From assembly GCA_964474695.1 (NCBI GenBank), contig CAYYTK010000006.1, positions 95,526 through 159,525 on the forward strand: a stretch of 64,000 bases of DNA, read 5' to 3'. A program made the position numbers and the translations under genes. The notes under the pieces were generated by a model. The model did no database searches. It worked only from the letters and a program-made list of their open reading frames with translations, and had not been told where the DNA came from. This document shows, piece after piece, positions 11,318 to 57,353 of the stretch (the stretch's first letter is position 1; the number at the start of each line of letters is the position of its first letter). Source of the DNA: an uncultured Anaerolineales bacterium. GTDB taxonomy: Bacteria; Chloroflexota; Anaerolineae; CG2-30-64-16.

Positions 11318-11366
11318 CTCGGGTCACAAACCTGGTTTCTCGGAGAAACCAGGTTTGTGACCCGAG
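11318..11366. repeat. perfect 24-bp-arm palindrome (family C, core ACAAACCTGGTTTCTC)
   Basis: CTCGGGTCACAAACCTGGTTTCTC-G-GAGAAACCAGGTTTGTGACCCGAG. It ends 12 nt before the lgt ATG. Confidence 0.9.
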
Positions 11367-13560: not shown

Positions 13561-14997
13561 CTACATCCAGCGCAGCCCTTTCGGGTAATGGCTCTTCAGC
13601 CGGTCGCCCGTGCGCTTGCCCCAGCCGATAGGATAGCCATCCACGGCTATCAAGGTCCACCCCGCTTCCCCAGGGCTGGCCGGTGATTCTCCGCGCAAGT
13701 AGGCCGCCAGCTCCCGCACTTCCGCCGGCAGACTCGACACGCGGCGAGCATCACCCACGGATAGACCGAGCGCGAGCGCATGGCTTGGCTCAAAGCGGTG
13801 GCCTGCCTGCTGAGCACCCTTCACGGTCCCCAGCCACCAGCCGGGATGCAGGAAGCGCAGCCCGGTGAGATCGGGCAGTCCTTGCGGCAGCGCATAGAGA
13901 TAGGAGCCGACGAGGGCCAGCCGTTCCGCAGCGGGCAGGCTGTTCAAATTTGCTGCGCAAAACGCCGCGAAGGCCTCTGCAACGAGCTTCGGAGGTCCTG
14001 CCGGCTTCCAGGGCTTCACTGTTGACGTCGCGGCGTGCATGCCGGCGGTCGATGGATCCGGTGATCGGTCCAACACGGCGACAAAGTGGCCTTCCCCCGG
14101 TCCTACATGCGGCCACAGACGGACGGGGCGGGCCAGGGCAGGCGTAGAGTCTTCCCCTGACGGAATCCAATCGGGTCTGCCGGGCGAGAACCCGGGGTGA
14201 CGGGGTGGCGCGACCAACTGGAAGTCGGCATGGCGCGCCAGAAAGCGCGCCACCGTGACCTCGTTTTCTTCCGGGTTAAATGTGCACGTCGAATACACCA
14301 GCCGTCCGCCGGGGCGCACCATCCGGGCGGCTTGTTCCAGGATGCCGGACTGGCGCAGCGCGCAGCCGTGTATCAGTTCGGGCGCCCACTCGCGCCGCGC
14401 AGCCTCGCCCTTGCGCATCATTCCCTCGCCTGAGCAGGGCGCATCGACTAAAACGCGGTCAAAGAAGCCGGGGAAGCGTTGGGCAAGTCGCTCCGGCGTC
14501 TCATTGGTGATGGCCGCGTTGCGCGCGCCCCAGCGCTCCAAATTCCCGGCCAACTCCCAAGCGCGCTTGGGAATCACCTCGTTGGCAATCAGCAGGCCTT
14601 GCCCCTGCATCAACGCGGCGATGTGCGTCGCCTTGCCGCCGGGCGCGGCCGCCAGGTCCAAAACACGCTCACCGGGTCGCGGCGCCAGCAACTCCGCCAC
14701 GGCCATCGCGGATGGGTCCTGGAGATAGTAGAGTCCGGCGGCATGATAAGGATGCTTGCCCGGTGCGACTTCACCGGCAAGCACGAAGCCGGCCGGACAC
14801 CAGGACACGGGCGCAGCGGCATCCATGCCGAACGCCAGGCCTGCGAGGCCGCGGAAGTCATCCACGCCGATTTTCAGCGTATTGACGCGCAAACCAACGC
14901 TCGGCGGCGCGTCAAAACTGGCGCTGAACGAAGCGTACTCATCGCCCAAAAGATCGCGCATCCGTGCCAAAAAGCCCAACGGCAACTCAAGACTCAT
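13561..14997 (-). CDS. RsmB/RsmF-family 16S rRNA m5C methyltransferase (NOL1/NOP2/Sun)
   Basis: SAM-binding LDLAAAPGGKATHIA. Catalytic D-A-P-C-S-G (VLVDAPCSGEG) and TCTxNPEENE motifs. Start at MSLELPLGF. Confidence 0.8.
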   Translation of the reverse strand: MSLELPLGFLARMRDLLGDEYASFSASFDAPPSVGLRVNTLKIGVDDFRGLAGLAFGMDAAAPVSWCPAGFVLAGEVAPGKHPYHAAGLYYLQDPSAMAVAELLAPRPGERVLDLAAAPGGKATHIAALMQGQGLLIANEVIPKRAWELAGNLERWGARNAAITNETPERLAQRFPGFFDRVLVDAPCSGEGMMRKGEAARREWAPELIHGCALRQSGILEQAARMVRPGGRLVYSTCTFNPEENEVTVARFLARHADFQLVAPPRHPGFSPGRPDWIPSGEDSTPALARPVRLWPHVGPGEGHFVAVLDRSPDPSTAGMHAATSTVKPWKPAGPPKLVAEAFAAFCAANLNSLPAAERLALVGSYLYALPQGLPDLTGLRFLHPGWWLGTVKGAQQAGHRFEPSHALALGLSVGDARRVSSLPAEVRELAAYLRGESPASPGEAGWTLIAVDGYPIGWGKRTGDRLKSHYPKGLRWM

Positions 14998-15028
14998 GTG
15001 ATCACGCACCACGCACCACGCACCACAC

Positions 15029-16741
15029 CTACAACCCCATCGCGCACCCGTCCGCCCGCATATCACTCCCGCCGCACAGCACACCCGTCTCCGGGTCTCG
15101 TAGGATGATCTGTCCGCGGCCGAAAAGTGCGCGCTCGTGGCCGGCCACGACATCGACAGGATGTCCCATCTCGGCCAGGGCCGTCACCGTCGCGGCCGGG
15201 ATGCCCTCTTCCAGGCTCACGCGGCCCGCGGCTGTGCCGCTGTTGATACAAAAGCGCGGTCGGTCAAGCGCTGCCTGTGGATCAAGCCGGTCGTCAGCCA
15301 GCGCCAGCACCACCTGCGCGTGGCCCTGGGGCTGCATAAAGCCGCCCATGACACCGAAGGAGGCGATAAGTAGATTGGTAGATTGGGAATTGATGGAACC
15401 GTCCACCAATCTACCATCTACCACTCCACCGTCCCGGGTGATCATCGCTGGGATGATCGTGTGGTAGGGCCGCTTGCCGGGCGCGAGCGCGTTCGGGTGC
15501 CCCGGTTCCAGGCTGAAATTGTGACCGCGGTTCTGCAGGCTGAAGCCCCAGCCGGACGGCACGATGCCGGTGCCGAATCCCATATAGTTGCTGTTGATGA
15601 AGGAGCAGGCATTGCCTTGTTCGTCCACGACGCTGAAGTAGACCGTATCGGAGCCGGCGACCGGGGCGCCGCGACGTTGGTCGAGGGTGGTGTGTGCCGG
15701 ATCGATCAGCCCTCGACGTTCGGCGGCATACTCCTTCGAGAGTAACTGGTCGATTGGTATGTCGGCAAACTGGGGATCGGCGACATACCAGCGCGTATCG
15801 GCGAAGGCCAGGCGCATCGCCTCGATCTCAAGGTGTAGTCGTTCGGGTGCCAGGGGTTCGCGGCCGGCGAGGTCGAAGCCCTCCAGGATGTTCAGCGCCA
15901 ACAGCGCGGCCAACCCCTGGCCGTTCGGCGGGCATTCCCAGATGCGCAAGCCGCGGTAGGTTGTGCTGATCGGCTCGTCCCAGGTGCTGGTGTGCGCCGC
16001 CAGATCCTCGACCGTCAGGCAGCCGCCCGCGGCCTGTACGGCGGCTGCGATCGCTTCGGCGATGCGCCCCTGGTAATAGGCGGCCTTGCCGCCCTCGGCC
16101 ACGGCGCGCAGGGTGCGGGCCAGGCCGGGATTCCGAAACACCTCGCCGGGCTTGGGCGCGCGGCCATCGATCGTCAGTTCCCGGCCGCCGGCTGCCTGGC
16201 GCAACTGCCGTTCGGCCCCGCGCGCCCAGAAGTAAGCGGTGATGGGTGCGACCGGGAAGCCCTCCTCTGCCAGGCGAATGGCCGGCGCGAGGACGCGGCT
16301 CAGCGGCAGGCGGCCGTGGCGCTCGACCAGGTCGCACCAGCCCGCGCACGCACCGGGCACGGTGATCGTGTAAGGATGGTAGGGGGGCAGTTCCACGCCG
16401 CACCCGGCGGCGCCGAATCCCTCGCGTTGCAGCCGTTCCAATGTCAGCGCGGCCGGCGCGCGGCCCGATCCGTTCAGCGCGGTGATCTTCCCGTTGGCGG
16501 CCTCCGGCGTTACCGGCGGAGCAGCCTCGTAGAACAGCGCAAAGCAGTCGCCGCCGATGCCGGTGGAGGTGGGCTCGGTCACGTTCAGGGCCGCGGCGGT
16601 CGCGACCGCGGCATCGGCCGCGTTGCCGCCTGCGGCCAGGATCTCCAGCCCGGCAGCCGCAGCTAACGGCTGCGATGCCGCCACCATGCCGCGGCGGCCG
16701 TAGACGGGCGAGCGGCGGGACGCGAAAATCAGCTCAGACAT
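15029..16741 (-). CDS. ggt: gamma-glutamyltransferase
   Basis: Typical GGT large- and small-subunit motifs. Carries an extra ~20-codon in-frame segment (VVDGRLVDGSINSQSTNL) made of family-B octamers. Confidence 0.85.
   Translation of the reverse strand: MSELIFASRRSPVYGRRGMVAASQPLAAAAGLEILAAGGNAADAAVATAAALNVTEPTSTGIGGDCFALFYEAAPPVTPEAANGKITALNGSGRAPAALTLERLQREGFGAAGCGVELPPYHPYTITVPGACAGWCDLVERHGRLPLSRVLAPAIRLAEEGFPVAPITAYFWARGAERQLRQAAGGRELTIDGRAPKPGEVFRNPGLARTLRAVAEGGKAAYYQGRIAEAIAAAVQAAGGCLTVEDLAAHTSTWDEPISTTYRGLRIWECPPNGQGLAALLALNILEGFDLAGREPLAPERLHLEIEAMRLAFADTRWYVADPQFADIPIDQLLSKEYAAERRGLIDPAHTTLDQRRGAPVAGSDTVYFSVVDEQGNACSFINSNYMGFGTGIVPSGWGFSLQNRGHNFSLEPGHPNALAPGKRPYHTIIPAMITRDGGVVDGRLVDGSINSQSTNLLIASFGVMGGFMQPQGHAQVVLALADDRLDPQAALDRPRFCINSGTAAGRVSLEEGIPAATVTALAEMGHPVDVVAGHERALFGRGQIILRDPETGVLCGGSDMRADGCAMGL
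15371..15430. repeat. family-B (TAGATTGG / CCAATCTA) composite inverted repeat lying in frame inside ggt
   Basis: TAGATTGGTAGATTGG ... CCACCAATCTACCATCTACCA. The two halves are reverse complements of each other. Confidence 0.85.
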
Positions 16742-19803: not shown

Positions 19804-22161
19804 TCAGGGTGCTTGTTTACCCTGCAGCCCGCGCCACACCCGCTCGGGCGTCAGCGGGAACTCGTCGAAGCGCACCCCGGTCGCGTCATAGACCGCGGCG
19901 CAGACGGCGGCTGCCGCGGGTAGGTAGGGCATCTCCCCCATGCCGCGCGCGCCGAACGGGCCGTTGGGATCGGGCACCTCGACGATCAGTGCATCCATCT
20001 GATCCGGCACATCCAGCACGGTCGGGATCAGGTAGGTGCTGAGTTTGTCGGTGAGCACCCGTCCCTCCCGCGTCTTCCACTCCTCCTGGATCGCGTACCC
20101 CAATGCCTGCACTGCCGCGCCCTCGATCTGGCCCGTCACCTGCTGTGGATTGATGGCCTGGCCCACGTCATCGGCGCTGATGAAGCGCTCCACCTTGACT
20201 TGCCCGGTTTCGGTGTCGACGGCCACGAACGCCACCTGGGCTACGTAGCCGTACGCGAAATTGGGCTTCCCCTGGCCGGTATCGTGATCCAGCGGCGTAG
20301 TCTTGGGGGCCAGGTAGACGTATTCACCGATGGCCGGCCGCTCTTCGTTCCGCCAGGCTGCCAGCGCCTTCTCGGCGGCCCCGCGCACCGCGTTGCCGCT
20401 CATGTAGGTGAGTCGCGAAGCGGATGCACTGCCTGAGCTGCCCATCTGCGCCGTGTCGGATGCGATCACCTTCACCCGCCCAAACGGCACCTCCAGCACC
20501 TCGGCAGCCACCTGCGCGATGATGGTATGATTGCCCTGGCCGCAGTCCGCCCCGGCAAAGTAAACCACCGCCTCTGCGATCTCGCTCCCGCCGCGCGCCT
20601 CCACGCGGGCGTAACTGTTCTCCTGGTAGCCGAACGAGAAGCCGACGTTCTTGAAGCCCGCCGCAAAGCCGATGCCGCGGGCGATCTGCGGATCGCTTGC
20701 GTGTTGCGCATTGCGTGTTGCGTGATTCGCTGATTCGCTGATTCGCTGATTCGTTGATTCGCCGTTTCGCTGATTCGCAGGCCTGTGCCAATGCCGCGGC
20801 ATGCATGCCGCTTCATCCTGTGTCCATCCGGCAGCTTTCGCGGCCGTGATGATGGTCTTGGTCAAGCCAACGCCGCCGGGGATAGGTGTGCCAACAATGA
20901 GCAGGCTCTCATCGGTCAGGATGTTCCGCAGCCGGATCTCAACCGGGTCGAGGCCTAAGGCTTCGGCCAGTTTATCCATCTGGCTTTCGGCCGCGAAGTG
21001 GCCCTGGGGTCCGCCGAAGCCGCGGAACGCCGCGCCTGGCACGTGGTTGGTGTAGACGGCGTAGGTGTCCACCGCAGCATTCGGGATGTCATACGGCCCC
21101 GTGCAGGTCAGGGTGGTGTTGCCCAACACCTTGTTGCTGGTGTACATGTAGGCCCCGCCATCGGCGATGACCTTGACCTCGACGGCGGTCAGCCTGCCAT
21201 CACGCTTCGCGCCCCAGCGGGTGTAGATCTTCATGGCGTGGCGTTTGCCGTGGCCGATGATCGATTCTTCGCGGCTCCAGATCGTCTTGATCGGTCGCCT
21301 GATGCCGCGCTGCGCCAGCCGCCAGACTGCCAGCGCCAGGGTGATCTGAACCGACATGTCCTCGCGGCCGCCGAACGCACCGCCGATGGCCGGATAGATC
21401 ACGCGCACCTGTTCCTTGGGGATGCCCAGCGCGTGCGCGATCTGTCCTTGATCCTCGTGGGTCCATTGGCCCGCAACCTCGACCGTGATGCGTCCTGCGT
21501 CATCCAGATAGGCCACACCGGCCTCGGGCTGGAGGTAAGCGTGTTCTTGCACCGGGGTCTGATAGACCCCCTCGATGATGACGCCGCCTTCGTCGGCAGC
21601 CTCCCGGAAGCCCGCCTCGACATCGCCCTTGCGGATGCGATACGCATAGCACACGTTATTCGCGCTGTGCGGATGGAGTTGATAGGGCACTGGCCGCGCA
21701 GGATCGGCCGCGCTTAATCCGCCGGCCAACGACGGCGCAGCTTCCTCGGGGTCGAGCACGACCGGCAGATCCTCCCACTCGATCCGGATCAGCTTGCAGG
21801 CCGCGCGTGCCTGTGTTTCGGTCTCTGCCACCACCAGCGCCACCTGGTCCCCCACAAAGCGGGCCACGTCGGCGCCAGGCTTGTCCGAGCCGGGGCCGCA
21901 GAGCACCGGCTGGTCCTTGATCTGCAGGCCATATTCGTTCACCGGCACATCTTTGGATGTGAACACCGCCACGACGCCAGGGGCGGTTTCGGCCGCAGCC
22001 GTCTCGATGCTGAGGACGCGCGCATGCGGCCGTCCGGCGAACAGCGTCGCCATATGCAACATGTCCGGGTAGACGATATCCCCGGGGTAAAGCGTCTTCC
22101 CGGTCACCTTGCCGGGCGCATCGATGCGGACAGCATTCTTGCCTACCATGTGGTAACTCAT
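19804..22161 (-). CDS. xanthine dehydrogenase family molybdopterin-binding large subunit
   Basis: MSYHMVGKNAVRIDAPGKVTGKTLY... N-terminus with Mo-binding domains (GGAFGG, GGGFGG-like motifs). Start ATG 22161 has a GGAGG RBS and an ATGA overlap with the upstream gene. The 114-codon N-terminal extension in the ORF track is rejected. Contains a ~33-codon low-complexity in-frame insert. Confidence 0.85.
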   Translation of the reverse strand: MSYHMVGKNAVRIDAPGKVTGKTLYPGDIVYPDMLHMATLFAGRPHARVLSIETAAAETAPGVVAVFTSKDVPVNEYGLQIKDQPVLCGPGSDKPGADVARFVGDQVALVVAETETQARAACKLIRIEWEDLPVVLDPEEAAPSLAGGLSAADPARPVPYQLHPHSANNVCYAYRIRKGDVEAGFREAADEGGVIIEGVYQTPVQEHAYLQPEAGVAYLDDAGRITVEVAGQWTHEDQGQIAHALGIPKEQVRVIYPAIGGAFGGREDMSVQITLALAVWRLAQRGIRRPIKTIWSREESIIGHGKRHAMKIYTRWGAKRDGRLTAVEVKVIADGGAYMYTSNKVLGNTTLTCTGPYDIPNAAVDTYAVYTNHVPGAAFRGFGGPQGHFAAESQMDKLAEALGLDPVEIRLRNILTDESLLIVGTPIPGGVGLTKTIITAAKAAGWTQDEAACMPRHWHRPANQRNGESTNQRISESANHATRNAQHASDPQIARGIGFAAGFKNVGFSFGYQENSYARVEARGGSEIAEAVVYFAGADCGQGNHTIIAQVAAEVLEVPFGRVKVIASDTAQMGSSGSASASRLTYMSGNAVRGAAEKALAAWRNEERPAIGEYVYLAPKTTPLDHDTGQGKPNFAYGYVAQVAFVAVDTETGQVKVERFISADDVGQAINPQQVTGQIEGAAVQALGYAIQEEWKTREGRVLTDKLSTYLIPTVLDVPDQMDALIVEVPDPNGPFGARGMGEMPYLPAAAAVCAAVYDATGVRFDEFPLTPERVWRGLQGKQAP
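20680..20778. repeat. family-A repeat cassette (GGCGATCTGCGGATCG + TTGCGTGTTGCG x2 + CTGATTCG x6) in frame inside the XDH Mo-subunit gene
   Basis: Tandem octamers read directly. Encodes ...ANQRNGESTNQRISESANHATRNAQHASDPQIA... Confidence 0.9.
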
Positions 22162-23615
22162 TGGTGTGCCTCCCTTCCCACTGTCGCGCGCTCGATCGCC
22201 TCCAGGATCTTGTAGTACCCCGTGCAGCGGCACAGGTTGCCGGTGAGCGCCTGTTTGATCTGGTCGGCGGTAGGCTGCGGGTATTCTTCGAGCAGATTTG
22301 CAGCCGACATCAGGATGCCGGGGGTGCAGTAGCCGCACTGGACGGCCGCAGCGTCGATGAAAGCCTGTTGAATCGGATGGAGTTGGCCTGCTGTCGCCGC
22401 CAATCCTTCCACCGTGACAACCTCGCAACCTTCGGCCCGCTCTGCCGGCACCAGGCAGCTCATCACCGCCACGCCATCCAGCCAGACCGTGCACGCGCCG
22501 CATTCGCCCTCGGCGCAGCCTTCTTTCGTCCCAGTCAGCCCGGCATCCTCCCGCAAGGCACGTAGCAGCGTCTTCCCGTGGGTGTTGGGTAGGCTGGTAG
22601 GCTTGCCGTTCAGGATCAGAGAGATCGGCGATTGGGGGTTGGAAACTGGTAGAGCTGCATTCGCTGATTCGTTGATTCGCTGATTCGCTTTCCCCTGCAA
22701 CAACACCGGCTGCTCCGGCCAGCCCTCCCGTTCCGTGCCGTCGCGCAGTTGGCGCAAGGCACGGGCCGTGAGCACCCGCACCATGTCGCGGCGATAGTCG
22801 GCGCTGCCTCGGATGTCGGAAATGGGGCGGGCTGCGGCTGCGGTCAATTCCGCCGCGCGGTCGATGACCTCATCGGTAAGCCCCTTGTCGGCCAGGAAGG
22901 CTTCTGCCTCCCCCGCGCGTACGATGGTCGGTGCGACGGAGCCGAGAGCGATGCGGGCGCGTGATATATGGTCTTCAGCAAAGTCTACGATCACCGCGAC
23001 ATTCACGACGCTGATCGCCTGCGCCTGTCGCAGGCCGAGCTTCAGGAACGTGCCGCGCTCGGTCGGCTTGAGGGCCGGGACATTGATGCGAACGAGCATC
23101 TCGTCGGCCTGGAGCGCGGTCTTTCGGACGCCGCGGAAGAACTCGGCGCAGCTCAGGGTGCGCTCTCCCCGCGCGCTGCTGGCCAGGGTAAAGGTGGCGT
23201 CCATGGCCCACAGCGGCGCGATGGTGTCGTTGGCCGGGCTGGCGGTGATGCAGTTGCCGGCCACGGTGCCGCGGTTGCGGATTTGCGGCGCACCTACCAG
23301 CCAGCAGGCCCGTGCCAGCGGAAATGCATCGGCCACCGCATCGGGCATGCCTACCACCTGATTGTGGGTGACATTCGCGCCCAGGTGGAAGGCGCCGTTA
23401 TTGCGTTCAATGGCGTCTAGCCCGGGGATGCGTGAGACATCGATAATCGTCTCCGGTGTCCGCACCCCGCGCTCGATCTCCAGGATCAGATCGGTGCCGC
23501 CCGCAATGAGACGGGCGGTCTGCGGATCGTTTGCGTGTTGCGGGCGATCTGCGGATCGCTTAAGCAGGTCCAACGCTTCAGCGATGCTGCCCGGCGCGTA
23601 ATAGGTATGCCACAT
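22158..23615 (-). CDS. fused FAD-binding (CoxM/XdhB-like) + [2Fe-2S] (CoxS/XdhC-like) subunit of the molybdenum hydroxylase
   Basis: N-terminal FAD-binding domain (AGGTDL...). C-terminal two [2Fe-2S] cysteine clusters (CAEGECGACTV; CGYCTPG...CRCTGY). The linker and N-terminus each carry family-A repeat-encoded segments. Confidence 0.8.
   Translation of the reverse strand: MWHTYYAPGSIAEALDLLKRSADRPQHANDPQTARLIAGGTDLILEIERGVRTPETIIDVSRIPGLDAIERNNGAFHLGANVTHNQVVGMPDAVADAFPLARACWLVGAPQIRNRGTVAGNCITASPANDTIAPLWAMDATFTLASSARGERTLSCAEFFRGVRKTALQADEMLVRINVPALKPTERGTFLKLGLRQAQAISVVNVAVIVDFAEDHISRARIALGSVAPTIVRAGEAEAFLADKGLTDEVIDRAAELTAAAARPISDIRGSADYRRDMVRVLTARALRQLRDGTEREGWPEQPVLLQGKANQRINESANAALPVSNPQSPISLILNGKPTSLPNTHGKTLLRALREDAGLTGTKEGCAEGECGACTVWLDGVAVMSCLVPAERAEGCEVVTVEGLAATAGQLHPIQQAFIDAAAVQCGYCTPGILMSAANLLEEYPQPTADQIKQALTGNLCRCTGYYKILEAIERATVGREAHQ
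22656..22695. repeat. family-A octamer run (CATTCGCTGATTCGTTGATTCGCTGATTCGC) inside the FAD-[Fe-S] linker
   Basis: Encodes KANQRINESANAA in frame. Confidence 0.85.
23514..23562. repeat. family-A module (GGCGGTCTGCGGATCGTTTGCGTGTTGCG + GGCGATCTGCGGATCGCT) inside the 5' end of the FAD-[Fe-S] gene
   Basis: Near-identical to 20681-20710. Encodes SADRPQHANDPQTA in frame. Confidence 0.85.
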
Positions 23616-24965: not shown

Positions 24966-24988
24966 GGTTGTTCTCCTGATTTCTTTGC

Positions 24989-25039
24989 TCCACAAACCAG
25001 GTGGCGACCTTCGGTCGTCCGAAAAACCTGGTTTGTGGA
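24989..25039. repeat. family-C hairpin (TCCACAAACCAGGT ... ACCTGGTTTGTGGA) with a nested inner stem
   Basis: 14-bp arms. Sits between the ygfK-like stop (25050) and the ssnA RBS. Confidence 0.85.
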
Positions 25040-25049
25040 ACAAGTTTCC

Positions 25050-29243: not shown

Positions 29244-29386
29244 TGGTAGACTGGTAACTTGGTACGTTGGTAGATTGGTGCTTGGTAGATTGGTAGGTGG
29301 TGTATTAGTTGCAGGTTCTCCGAGGCCCAGTTTCCCAACCTACCAATCTACCAATTTGCCAGTTCACCAGGTTACCAATCTACCAG
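29244..29386. repeat. family-B array: GGTAGATTGG-type units (left) facing CTACCAATC-type units (right) in a composite inverted repeat
   Basis: Read directly. Intergenic between the PLP-enzyme stop and the hydrolase start. The ORF-track entry 29153..29338 merely translates it. Confidence 0.85.
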
Positions 29387-34017: not shown

Positions 34018-34052
34018 GGTAGATTGGTAGATTGGTAAGTTGGCAAATTGGG
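34018..34052. repeat. family-B units (GGTAGATTGGTAGATTGGTAAGTTGG)
   Basis: Lies between the arcC start and the four-helix-bundle gene stop. Confidence 0.85.
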
Positions 34053-34059
34053 ATATGGG

Positions 34060-34524
34060 TCATGTCTCATCAGCGCCGATTGGGAAAGGCGTGATTTCGT
34101 AGAGTGGCCCTTCTTCATGCACGGCGACACGGTCACCATATTCCTGGCGGCCCTGTTGCTGGCCGCGCACATAGCGAATGTAGCCATTCAGTGACCGCAA
34201 GGCGCTATGGCAGAGCTGGCGTTGGGCAGGCAGCTCGCCCTTGGTGTAACCGAGAACATCACAAGCGATGAACTGGCTCAGCGTTTCCTCGAGCGATCCG
34301 CGGGCGATATAAAAGAAACGGAGGCAGTCGAGGTAGTGATAACGTCCGTAACCTTCAGCGATGTTGAATCCTACGCTGGTGGATGCCTTCCGCATCTGCA
34401 GCCCCAGGTTGTACTTCTCCTCAGGCGGCAACGTCTGTATCACCCGATAGGCCGCGCGCATCACCTGGAGCGCCAACTGATAGCACTCCAGATCCTCGAA
34501 CCCCCGCTGCTCCTTTTGTTCCAT
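34060..34524 (-). CDS. four-helix-bundle protein of the '23S rRNA intervening-sequence protein' family
   Basis: ECYQLALQV...FNIAEGYGR...ARGSL.E motif pattern typical of that family; about 150 aa. Confidence 0.65.
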   Translation of the reverse strand: MEQKEQRGFEDLECYQLALQVMRAAYRVIQTLPPEEKYNLGLQMRKASTSVGFNIAEGYGRYHYLDCLRFFYIARGSLEETLSQFIACDVLGYTKGELPAQRQLCHSALRSLNGYIRYVRGQQQGRQEYGDRVAVHEEGPLYEITPFPIGADET

Positions 34525-34546
34525 TGACGCCCCAATCCACCACTCG

Positions 34547-34735
34547 GGATTTGGTAGAATGATGACGAGGTAAATTGGTAACTTGGGAGCTGATACTGGC
34601 CCCCCAATTCACCAGGCCACCAATCTACCAATTACCAATCTACCAATCTACCAATCTACCAATTACCAATCTACCAATCTACCAATTACCAATCTACCAA
34701 TTTACCAATTACCAATCTACCAATTACCAATCTAC
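34547..34735. repeat. largest family-B array: about 15 tandem CCAATCTA / CCAATTA units preceded by inverted GGTA-ATTGG units
   Basis: Read directly. Sits between the carbamoyltransferase stop (34732) and the four-helix-bundle gene start. The ORF-track entry 34583..34792 merely translates it. Confidence 0.9.
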
Positions 34736-36790: not shown

Positions 36791-36882
36791 AGGTCTTGCA
36801 CCTGCCCCCACAGATGCGGCATGTATGTCGGCGGCATACGCGCCATTGGGCCTTTGTGTCTTTGTGTCTCTGTGTTTTTGTG
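36791..36882. repeat. 9-bp-stem hairpin (GGGGCAGGT-CTTGC-ACCTGCCCC) followed by CTTTGTGT tandem octamers (x4, imperfect)
   Basis: Read directly. Intergenic between the ygeY stop and the carbamoyltransferase start. Confidence 0.8.
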
Positions 36883-45150: not shown

Positions 45151-45197
45151 TGTTGCGACAAACCAGGTTTCGCGGAGAAACCTGGTTTGTCGCAACA
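45151..45197. repeat. family-C perfect 21-bp-arm hairpin (TGTTGCGACAAACCAGGTTTC-GCGGA-GAAACCTGGTTTGTCGCAACA)
   Basis: Read directly. Lies between the SBP stop (45213) and the ATPase RBS. Confidence 0.9.
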
Positions 45198-49729: not shown

Positions 49730-49875
49730 GTGACAAATCGGCAGATTGGTGAACCAATGCATCAATCCATCGGCGTCCTGCTATTAGAAACTGGTGGATC
49801 GGCAACTTGCCATCAAGAATGCCGGATCCACCAGTTCACGCATCTACCAGTTTACCACTCTACCGGTCTACCAGT
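49730..49875. repeat. diverged family-B-like region: 14-bp-arm hairpin (CTGGTGGATCGGCA...TGCCGGATCCACCAG, 49791-49834) plus CTACCAGT-type units
   Basis: Read directly. Intergenic between the PFOR stop and the DHOD-like start. Confidence 0.75.
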
Positions 49876-57239: not shown

Positions 57240-57260
57240 GGGGTACCTCACGGGGAGTCG

Positions 57261-57353
57261 GTGAATTGGTAAATTGGTAGATGGTAAATTGGTAGATTGG
57301 TGCCCCATGAGCCAGATTGAATGGCCCGGCCTACCAATCTACCAATCTACCAG
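57261..57353. repeat. family-B composite inverted repeat (GTGAATTGGTAAATTGGTAGATGGTAAATTGGTAGATTGG ... CTACCAATCTACCAATCTACC)
   Basis: Read directly. Lies between the SBP stop and the ATPase start. Confidence 0.85.

Follow-up and report, generated by a model that had tools for sequence, protein, structure and literature searches.

The GGT-family gene and its insert

The stretch of DNA studied here, referred to as the window, comprises 64,000 nucleotides from an uncultured Anaerolineales bacterium (Chloroflexota; contig CAYYTK010000006.1). Its minus strand carries a gamma-glutamyltransferase (GGT) family gene, ggt, whose open reading frame (ORF) reads through a short hairpin made of inverted octamer repeats, called family B in what follows (Table 1). 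The 570-aa product matches the full-length PF01019 profile of Pfam (E = 5.7e-143, profile positions 2-512 of 512), and its nearest solved structure is 2nlz, the 'cephalosporin acylase' of Bacillus halodurans (E = 3.3e-149, 47% identity). With this profile match, the nucleophilic threonine followed by a Gly-Gly pair and the GGT fold, the protein belongs to the family (PF01019, MEROPS T03), and it shares with 2nlz a cytoplasmic GGT-like architecture devoid of the lid loop. Autoproteolytic maturation and gamma-glutamyl hydrolase or transferase activity are predicted from this membership. Neither Thr366 nor Gly466 nor Gly467 varies among 61 orthologues, whether or not an allele carries the insert. 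Both the homologues and the genome loci found agree with an assignment of the organism to Anaerolineae (Chloroflexota); the best match in a genome is 81% identical to the window protein, and P0001, a protein from a metagenome, reaches 96% identity. The segment EAAPPVTP (GGT residues 73-80, window about 16500-16530) is found in the window protein only, as these 8 residues are missing from P0001 and all other homologues; a short duplication in tandem (EAA...EAA) may account for it.

In the window the octamer TAGATTGG is present 21 times, where 0.70 occurrences are expected, and none of 100 shuffles reached this count. Its occurrences form five clusters: the ggt site and positions 29271-29382, 34020-34035, 34620-34734 and 57293-57349. 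At the ggt site the plus strand reads GTAGATTGGTAGATTGG at 15370-15386 and CCAATCTACCATCTACCA at 15406-15423, and the repeat finder reported a perfect inverted repeat of 11 nt (15376-15386 / 15406-16) within 28-nt arms that are 75% complementary. Residues 438-457 of the protein correspond exactly to 15430-15371, and the ORF stays open throughout. The RNA of the coding strand folds at -37.1 kcal/mol, compared with -24.6 +/- 3.6 for shuffled sequences (z = -3.5), and the DNA fold gives z = -3.0. The octamer hairpin that the original prediction placed in frame inside ggt is thus confirmed, but two of its figures have to be corrected. The insert brings a net gain of 18 residues relative to 2nlz, in an alignment whose sole large gap falls exactly at the repeat, and of 16-18 residues relative to the orthologues that lack it (hereafter empty), in which HTIIP and FGVMGG are 23-25 residues apart, compared with 41 in the window GGT; about 20 had been proposed. 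Similarly, the last repeat-encoded residue, Leu457, stands 9 residues ahead of Gly466-Gly467 instead of about 5.

The arms are built from short tandem units of 7 and 8 nt, GGTAGAT and GGTAGATT, and their complement. On the TAGATTGG strand, a pure octamer array (GGTAGATT)n contains TAG in every frame within 24 nt and an alternating 8+7 array (15 nt) can be read without a stop in a single frame only, Gly-Arg-Leu-Val-Asp; the complementary CCAATCTA strand is stop-free in all frames. Since a hairpin puts both orientations on the coding strand, intragenic survivors are limited to those whose TAGATTGG-type arms either have the 8+7 periodicity or are very short, provided that the phase is right. The window copy, a 7-mer plus an 8-mer, fits this rule, as does an orthologous copy of seven 15-nt units (L082). 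Rfam 15 gave no match at the gathering threshold across the whole window and only a chance-level miRNA match in a local scan; the promoter and terminator scan returned one consensus-level promoter-like match on the antisense strand inside the repeat, to which no weight was given, and no terminator; and a protein-database search with the insert peptide alone found no match and no shared 5-residue words, probably an effect of low complexity.

Table 1 Coordinates of the ggt features and of the main repeat-bearing regions of the window
Feature	Positions	Strand	Basis or remarks
ggt ORF, cytoplasmic GGT-family (YwrD / 2nlz-type) Ntn-hydrolase, 570 aa	15029..16741	minus	PF01019, 2nlz, AF2, Foldseek
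Thr366 codon, predicted autoprocessing and catalytic nucleophile	15644..15646	minus	in alignments, at the position of residue 1, the N-terminal Thr, of solved small subunits; invariant
Gly466-Gly467 codons, oxyanion-hole Gly-Gly	15341..15346	minus	alignment
In-frame family-B hairpin insert, residues 438-457 GGVVDGRLVDGSINSQSTNL	15371..15430	minus	sequence, repeat finder, alignments, fold
5' arm, coding strand GTGGTAGATGGTAGATTGG, sole stop-free frame V-D-G-R-L-V	15406..15429	minus	sequence
3' arm, coding strand CCAATCTACCAATCTAC, encodes S-Q-S-T-N-L	15370..15386	minus	sequence
MoCo-binding dehydrogenase large subunit ORF	about 19804-22161	minus	
Intergenic family-B hairpin, two inverted arrays	29244..29385		unique loop of ~40 nt; between two minus-strand genes
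Inverted family-B arrays (34018-34051 and 34560-34735)	34018..34735		around a PF05635 four-helix-bundle ORF (34060-34527, minus)
Intergenic tandem octamer array CTTTGTGT	36852-36882		3.9 copies
Degenerate family-B-like array, TCTACCAG units	49826..49875		4 units; intergenic
Intergenic family-B hairpin	57260..57352		between two minus-strand genes

Position of the insert in the protein and state of the gene

The structure of the window GGT was modelled with AlphaFold2 (AF2) on the basis of 61 orthologues. The model has a predicted template-modelling score (pTM) of 0.89 and is confident except for residues 440-453, where the predicted local distance difference test (pLDDT) falls below 50; these residues join two beta-strands (432-437 and 456-464). 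Foldseek aligns the model to 2nlz with E = 1e-53 and template-modelling (TM) scores of 0.85/0.90, and 2nlz has a tight turn of 4 residues where the window GGT has its 18-residue excess. The first strand starts just after the predicted substrate-binding His427-Thr428 and the second one runs into Gly466-Gly467, which places the insert at the far tip of a beta-hairpin whose base belongs to the active site. With an extended strand, the insert would lie roughly 25-30 Å away from the Gly-Gly pair. The original prediction had located the insert between the conserved ...TRDG and ...ASFGVMGG segments, at the turn that is Lys-Asp-Gly-Lys in Escherichia coli, and this location holds. In an alignment by eye with E. 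coli GGT, the insert replaces that turn (471-474), in a numbering that agrees with the published Ser462/Ser463 and Gly483/Gly484. The proposed closeness to catalytic residues was overstated: 9 residues separate the insert from Gly-Gly, and it occupies the far end of the strand. The structural modelling that had been advised shows an intact fold in which the insert forms the low-confidence loop that caps a beta-hairpin.

As the insert is in the small subunit, between two active-site elements of the sequence, it could have inactivated the enzyme or changed its specificity, making the gene either a pseudogene in the making or one with a new function. The evolution of the gene argues against this. 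The ratio of nonsynonymous to synonymous substitution rates (dN/dS) is 0.26 in the comparison with L081, which is 96% identical and has identical insert DNA; it is 0.108 with L082 (P0003, 602 aa), whose family-B insert is larger (86 residues separate the flanking motifs, vs 41 in the window), and 0.115 with L083 (P0023), which has no insert. These last two values indicate that purifying selection is equally strong with and without the insert. Moreover, the window gene has no stops or frameshifts, its catalytic residues are invariant whether the insert is present or not, the synteny of its neighbourhood is conserved in four relatives and the insert occupies the far tip of its hairpin in the AF2 model. 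The pseudogene reading was consequently rejected on dN/dS and catalytic-residue conservation, and a loss or change of activity, which the original prediction had considered, seems very improbable. Judging from sequence and model, the window ggt looks functional, and the tolerated surface-loop insertion that had been contemplated as another outcome is supported by the dN/dS of 0.11, the invariant Thr366, Gly466 and Gly467, the intact predicted fold and the in-frame inserts of dozens of orthologues.

The same turn in orthologous proteins

The segment between HTIIPxMxTR and LxxxFGVMGG was scored in an alignment of 121 orthologues. Fifty-five of them are empty and have a tight turn (5-9 residues), 31 carry a family-B-type insert of the form (GRLVD)n ... 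(STNSQ)n, in segments of 22-67 residues, and the remaining 35 carry other inserts. Ten or more extra residues were found in 44 sequences at this turn vs 6 at the next most used site. A fairer sample is provided by 80 loci from species-representative genomes, because tblastn detected them independently of gene calling: the turn has 5 or more extra residues in 25 of these 80 loci, and the reading frame is kept across the site in all 80, in a protein-based search from which frameshifted alleles are not recoverable. The outgroups (Myxococcota, Planctomycetota and Bathyarchaeia) have a plain Asp-Gly turn.

The inserts are not all of the same kind. At least seven unrelated hairpin sequences occupy this turn in different Anaerolineae genomes, including family B (L001), GGACGGRG.../...CCGTCT (L005, L020), CTCCCCCCAAATT...AATTTGGGGGGAG (L009, L026), an AGAGAAY type (L014), CCCCTCTCCC...GGGAGAGGGG (L016, L017, L018, L023, L030, L036) and further types (L027, L034). 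Among the 23 longest inserts, 16 fold better than shuffled sequences (cut-off z <= -2), with z from -2.1 to -10.4 (L001, -6; L082, -10.4), and the seven without significant fold may have decayed. Non-repeat inserts of one length at this position in unrelated lineages would have spoken against the insertion of a hairpin; the alignment of orthologues shows instead inserts that share their position, vary in length and consist for the most part of repeat or hairpin DNA. The turn is a recurrent insertion hot spot, and in-frame repeat hairpins are common in the lineage, two points that go beyond the original prediction.

The presence and the size of the insert vary between close relatives. Proteins with 93-94% identity outside the site can be in different states: P0029 has an insert and P0058 has none, P0005 is filled and P0037 and P0045 are empty. 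Between close filled pairs the length differs by whole 5-residue steps, as in P0018 and P0039 (93.5% identical, 30 residues) or P0004 and P0007 (95.4% identical, 20 residues). Filled and empty alleles interleave in a neighbour-joining tree without support values, a pattern in which allelic recombination is possible and which does not separate one gain from several. Repeat units whose lengths are not multiples of three and copy numbers that differ among close relatives are also what would be expected if the array were a phase-variation contingency switch, in which the gain or loss of a single 7- or 8-nt unit toggled ggt. Slippage should nonetheless be rare in the window copy, as it has only two units per arm; the 80 tblastn loci are all in frame (with the reservation made above about the search), the length differences are multiples of 5 residues and the close relative L081 has an identical insert. 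Such a switch is hardly credible here.

Several scenarios may also be considered for the way in which the insert arose. One possibility is that it formed in place, either by expansion of the native turn codons (Asp-Gly-Ser/Arg-Leu, GAT GGT AGC CTG) through slippage and fold-back template switching, or as a patch templated by microhomology with the family-B arrays of the genome. The native empty sites, GAY GGN AGC CTG, match the repeat GAT GGT AGA TTG at 10/12 positions, so that an in-place or microhomology origin stays alive for family B, although it leaves the unrelated families at the same turn unexplained. The empty allele of L083, GAC GGT AGA TTG ATC, holds exactly one repeat unit, which could be the seed of such an expansion, but it is equally explicable as a deletion footprint. 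In the cleanest filled/empty DNA pair, P0029/P0058 (flanks of ~92% nucleotide identity), 78 nt replace 15 native nt (Arg-Met-Asp-Gly-Thr) and the target site is not duplicated; the insert takes the place of 4-5 native codons, which is not a clean addition, and the arms are often unequal, the left one being longer in P0029 and P0039. On the other side, identical units at four other places of the window and on many metagenome contigs point to spread between loci, and the hairpins that fill the turn in other genomes are unlike the native codons. An origin in place thus seems unlikely for family B. It would in any case concern the origin of the insert only and is compatible with its being a tolerated selfish repeat, hence the likelihoods that we attach to these readings are not those of mutually exclusive options.

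Two further observations were made on the orthologues. Some of them have short in-frame inserts after window residues 110 (VGAHGRAPL-type) and 262 (PFGAAQD / FGFAQD-type), with peptides typical of other hairpin repeats. In the genome of P0029 (L204 7583-9950), three ORFs for DDE transposases (DDE_Tnp_1, and an ISAZ013-type one that is split in two) are located directly upstream of the insert-bearing ggt.

Family-B and family-A repeats at other loci

The loops of the family-B copies of the window are unrelated to each other and range from 19 nt to about 500 nt, and its intergenic hairpins are found between co-directional genes. A scan of metagenomes for the double octamer returned at least 120 contig stretches, mostly of 57-68% GC, with the opposite arm within 400 nt in 25 of 99 among the matches listed. 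Among the matches listed, 15 metagenome cases have a perfect double octamer within a coding-like ORF, and in all 15 it is CCAATCTA that is read as sense, in agreement with the frame rule given above. Hosts that read a copy in frame were confirmed with Pfam: an HdrA-like flavoprotein; a copper P-type ATPase, where the copy follows closely on the DKTGT motif; a fused GlyRS alpha/beta; ProRS, where it falls in the editing domain; a GT1 glycosyltransferase; and a PMT_2 membrane protein.

This distribution bears on the possibility that the insert is kept for a function, either as an mRNA stem-loop (ribosome pausing, stability or RNase III processing) or as a peptide loop that offers an interaction or regulatory surface. 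A strongly folding hairpin is kept in many orthologues, including L001 and L082, and the intergenic copies are located between co-directional genes, where REP-like elements act on mRNA (PMC3733652). Yet, the hosts of the in-frame copies are functionally unrelated, the length, the tip sequence and the symmetry of the arms vary freely among close relatives, 93-94%-identical alleles do without the insert, seven long inserts no longer fold and the insert peptide is modelled as disordered. A conserved function of this kind appears improbable.

A second repeat, family A, behaves similarly in the neighbouring dehydrogenase of the molybdenum cofactor (MoCo) type. Octamers (GCGAATCA)n followed by heptamers (CGCAACA)n are in frame at 20697-20778 of its large subunit and encode the peptide RPANQRNGESTNQRISESANHATRNAQHAS. 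The same site has other numbers of family-A units in L082 and L204, and in L207 it is occupied by an unrelated GGACGAT/ATCGTCC heptamer hairpin with a TAG stop that may be a long-read assembly error. Another family-A array (22654-22689, in the minus-strand ORF 22158-23615) forms the linker GKANQRINESANAALPVSNPQSPISL between the FAD-binding/CO-dehydrogenase flavoprotein and 2Fe-2S parts of a fused protein, a junction at which L207 has a different repeat, GSGDRGQGSGVRGQGSGV. The insert in ggt is one case of a lineage-wide habit in Anaerolineae. In the same fused protein, the window has 9 extra residues near the N-terminus (RPQHANDPQ) that are missing from L082 and L207, and L082 (4562-6238) has an additional insert of about 72 residues in the 2Fe-2S domain (...PAPFPTPNPPAPFPAREGGGDSPLLTGEGPGVRSLLTGEGPGE...) whose peptide repeats suggest repetitive DNA.

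The only gene of the window flanked by family-B arrays encodes a PF05635 protein ('23S rRNA intervening-sequence / four-helix-bundle'). The unit is located between carbamoyltransferase and amino-acid kinase genes, its longer array consists of about 15 units in which 8-mers are mixed with CCAATTA 7-mers, and it looks like a stem-loop element of the intervening-sequence (IVS) style carrying an ORF. An association of family B with PF05635 was considered too weak, as only 2 further cases were found among 120 loci listed, one of them not adjacent. No gene for a REP-associated tyrosine transposase (RAYT) turned up in the Pfam scan of 12 window ORFs, which was not a systematic search.

Neighbouring genes and other repeats of the window

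The neighbours of ggt encode a PMT_2 membrane protein, RsmF, a YqeC/MobA-like protein, a carbonic anhydrase, a nitroreductase and the MoCo dehydrogenase operon. A tandem heptamer, CACGCAC (3.4 copies, 100% match, 15003-15026), nearly fills the 31 nt that separate the stop codon of ggt (15029-15031) from the start codon of rsmF (14995-14997). Another palindrome family, with core ACAAACCAGGTTTC / GAAACCTGGTTTGT, has three copies in the window (11318-11366, 24985-25043 and 45151-45197), two of them with perfect arms of 21-24 nt.

Probable explanation: a tolerated hairpin repeat at a permissive site

The explanation that we consider probable is that the insert is a tolerated, translated and selfish hairpin repeat located at a structurally permissive hot spot. 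It belongs to a dispersed family, forms a hairpin, keeps the frame and is absent from many close orthologues; the gene is under purifying selection with intact catalytic residues, inserts recur at the same turn and in-frame repeats are found in a variety of hosts. In that case, the family-B segment would have replaced the native Asp-Gly turn of 4-6 residues at the distal tip of the GGT beta-hairpin, as a passenger of selfish or neutral DNA that gave an active enzyme a longer flexible surface loop. The arms would change their length by slippage of repeat units, and survival would be restricted to steps of 15 nt (8+7) in the one frame free of stops, which would produce the (GRLVD)n...(STNSQ)n peptides. 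As for the recurrence at one site, a palindromic insert would enter and leave the chain at one point and the tip of a beta-hairpin would tolerate it best; a hairpin that is already present may also attract later ones. The hot spot would then be caused by selection, possibly together with hairpin-targeted insertion.

Some results weigh against this explanation. No target-site duplication was found in the P0029/P0058 pair and no transposase among the 12 window ORFs scanned against Pfam, so that mobility has to be deduced from the dispersed copies only. The non-B inserts have essentially no extra copies in their own 13-22 kb flanks (exact 11-mers, blastn-short) and, across 204 loci, only the CCCTCTCC..GGAGAGGG type recurs elsewhere, the GGACGG and GGACGA types doing so weakly; dispersed repeats are accordingly established for family B and the CCCTCTCC..GGAGAGGG type, a conclusion that does not extend to all insert families. 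The list of the top 120 homologues is skewed to insert carriers, since the query itself has an insert. The placement of the insert in three dimensions comes from AF2 secondary structure and homology, and the AF2 model of the long-insert orthologue P0003 (602 aa), meant to reveal any beta-ribbon built by long (GRLVD)n/(STNSQ)n arms, has a mean pLDDT of 48 and is unusable. The expression, autoprocessing and activity of the window GGT are, for their part, presumed from sequence and model.

A more general possibility is that an active, family-independent process in Anaerolineae installs and resizes hairpins of 7/8-nt units at existing hairpins or at sites that encode beta-turns. We regard this as rather unlikely. 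If true, such a process would repeatedly rewrite loops of GGT, the MoCo dehydrogenase, GlyRS, ProRS and the P-type ATPase and would be a lineage-wide generator of in-frame, length-variable surface loops; its dedicated partner could be the PF05635 four-helix-bundle (Avd-like) gene inside one family-B hairpin, the only candidate. As unrelated hairpins are found at the same site, the alternative between the targeting of existing hairpins and selective filtering is testable in existing collections of metagenome-assembled genomes.

If the insert is indeed a tolerated selfish repeat, free-living Chloroflexota would harbor in-frame selfish palindromes on a scale comparable to or larger than that of Rickettsia and with another element design. 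The GGT turn would then amount to a natural experiment on insertion tolerance, in which dozens of orthologues have received 5 to about 60 extra residues at the tip of one beta-hairpin and have kept purifying selection, and it could be of use for the protein engineering of GGT and cephalosporin-acylase scaffolds. For genome annotation, inserts of this kind make sequences look more divergent than they are, break up genes in error-prone assemblies and give rise to spurious low-complexity 'domains'.

Comparison with known repeat systems

In-frame selfish palindromes are known mainly from Rickettsia, whose palindromic elements (RPE) were reportedly described by Ogata et al. in 2000; a summary is given in PMC3733652. 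The behavior of the ggt insert is similar: both are dispersed palindromic repeats, located in frame in unrelated and apparently functional housekeeping genes and missing from orthologues, and both encode an extra peptide thought to lie in a surface loop; in the present case, dispersed copies, a hairpin, read-through under purifying selection and absence from orthologues were all observed. Contrary to RPE, to which they have no sequence relationship, the repeats described here come from Chloroflexota/Anaerolineae, their arms are made of tandem 7/8-nt units in variable number, where an RPE is a fixed element of about 100-150 bp, the loops of family-B copies are unrelated and the orthologous site is filled by different repeats. 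The 8-nt unit, the phylum of the host and a length that varies make homology to the RPE families very unlikely, and the likeness that we propose is one of behavior. The short tandemly repeated repetitive (STRR) heptamers of cyanobacteria, reportedly described by Mazel et al. in 1990, are likewise dispersed, lineage-specific arrays of the 7-nt class, with an obscure origin in both cases, but they belong to another phylum and have other units, whereas the arrays described here are paired into hairpins and have documented intragenic copies.

REP sequences (repetitive, extragenic and palindromic) offer another term of comparison. GTAG/CGTC REPs have been found inside ORFs, including in Chloroflexi, and the intragenic minority of REPs encodes 20-80 residues (Di Nocera et al., PMC3733652). 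Family B shares with them GTAG in short units and a location that is mostly between co-directional or convergent genes, with a minority inside ORFs, and its inverted pairs around a short variable spacer correspond to the inverted doublets of REPINs (PMC3116915). The family-B arm is, however, a tandem of non-palindromic 7/8-mers and not a single imperfect palindrome of 20-40 nt as in REP, and, contrary to REPIN-RAYT systems, the only array-flanked gene of the window is the PF05635 four-helix-bundle one. MITEs (miniature transposable elements with inverted repeats) such as Correia/NEMIS, ERIC and those of Coxiella (PMC5896051, PMC10969869, PMC3184786) are also small non-coding inverted-repeat elements whose read-through adds peptides, but family B has no target-site duplication (in P0029/P0058), no conserved internal sequence and no fixed length. 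Tested for target-site duplication and for a conserved core of defined length, it showed neither.

No description of octamer hairpins or in-frame repeats in Anaerolineae or Chloroflexi was found in the literature. By analogy, family B may be regarded as the Chloroflexota counterpart of the Rickettsia palindromic elements and of the intragenic REPs, and what is new here is the lineage, a design in which tandem 7/8-mers make up the arms of the hairpin, a polymorphism of length in 5-residue steps and the filling of one beta-hairpin tip by unrelated hairpins across orthologues.

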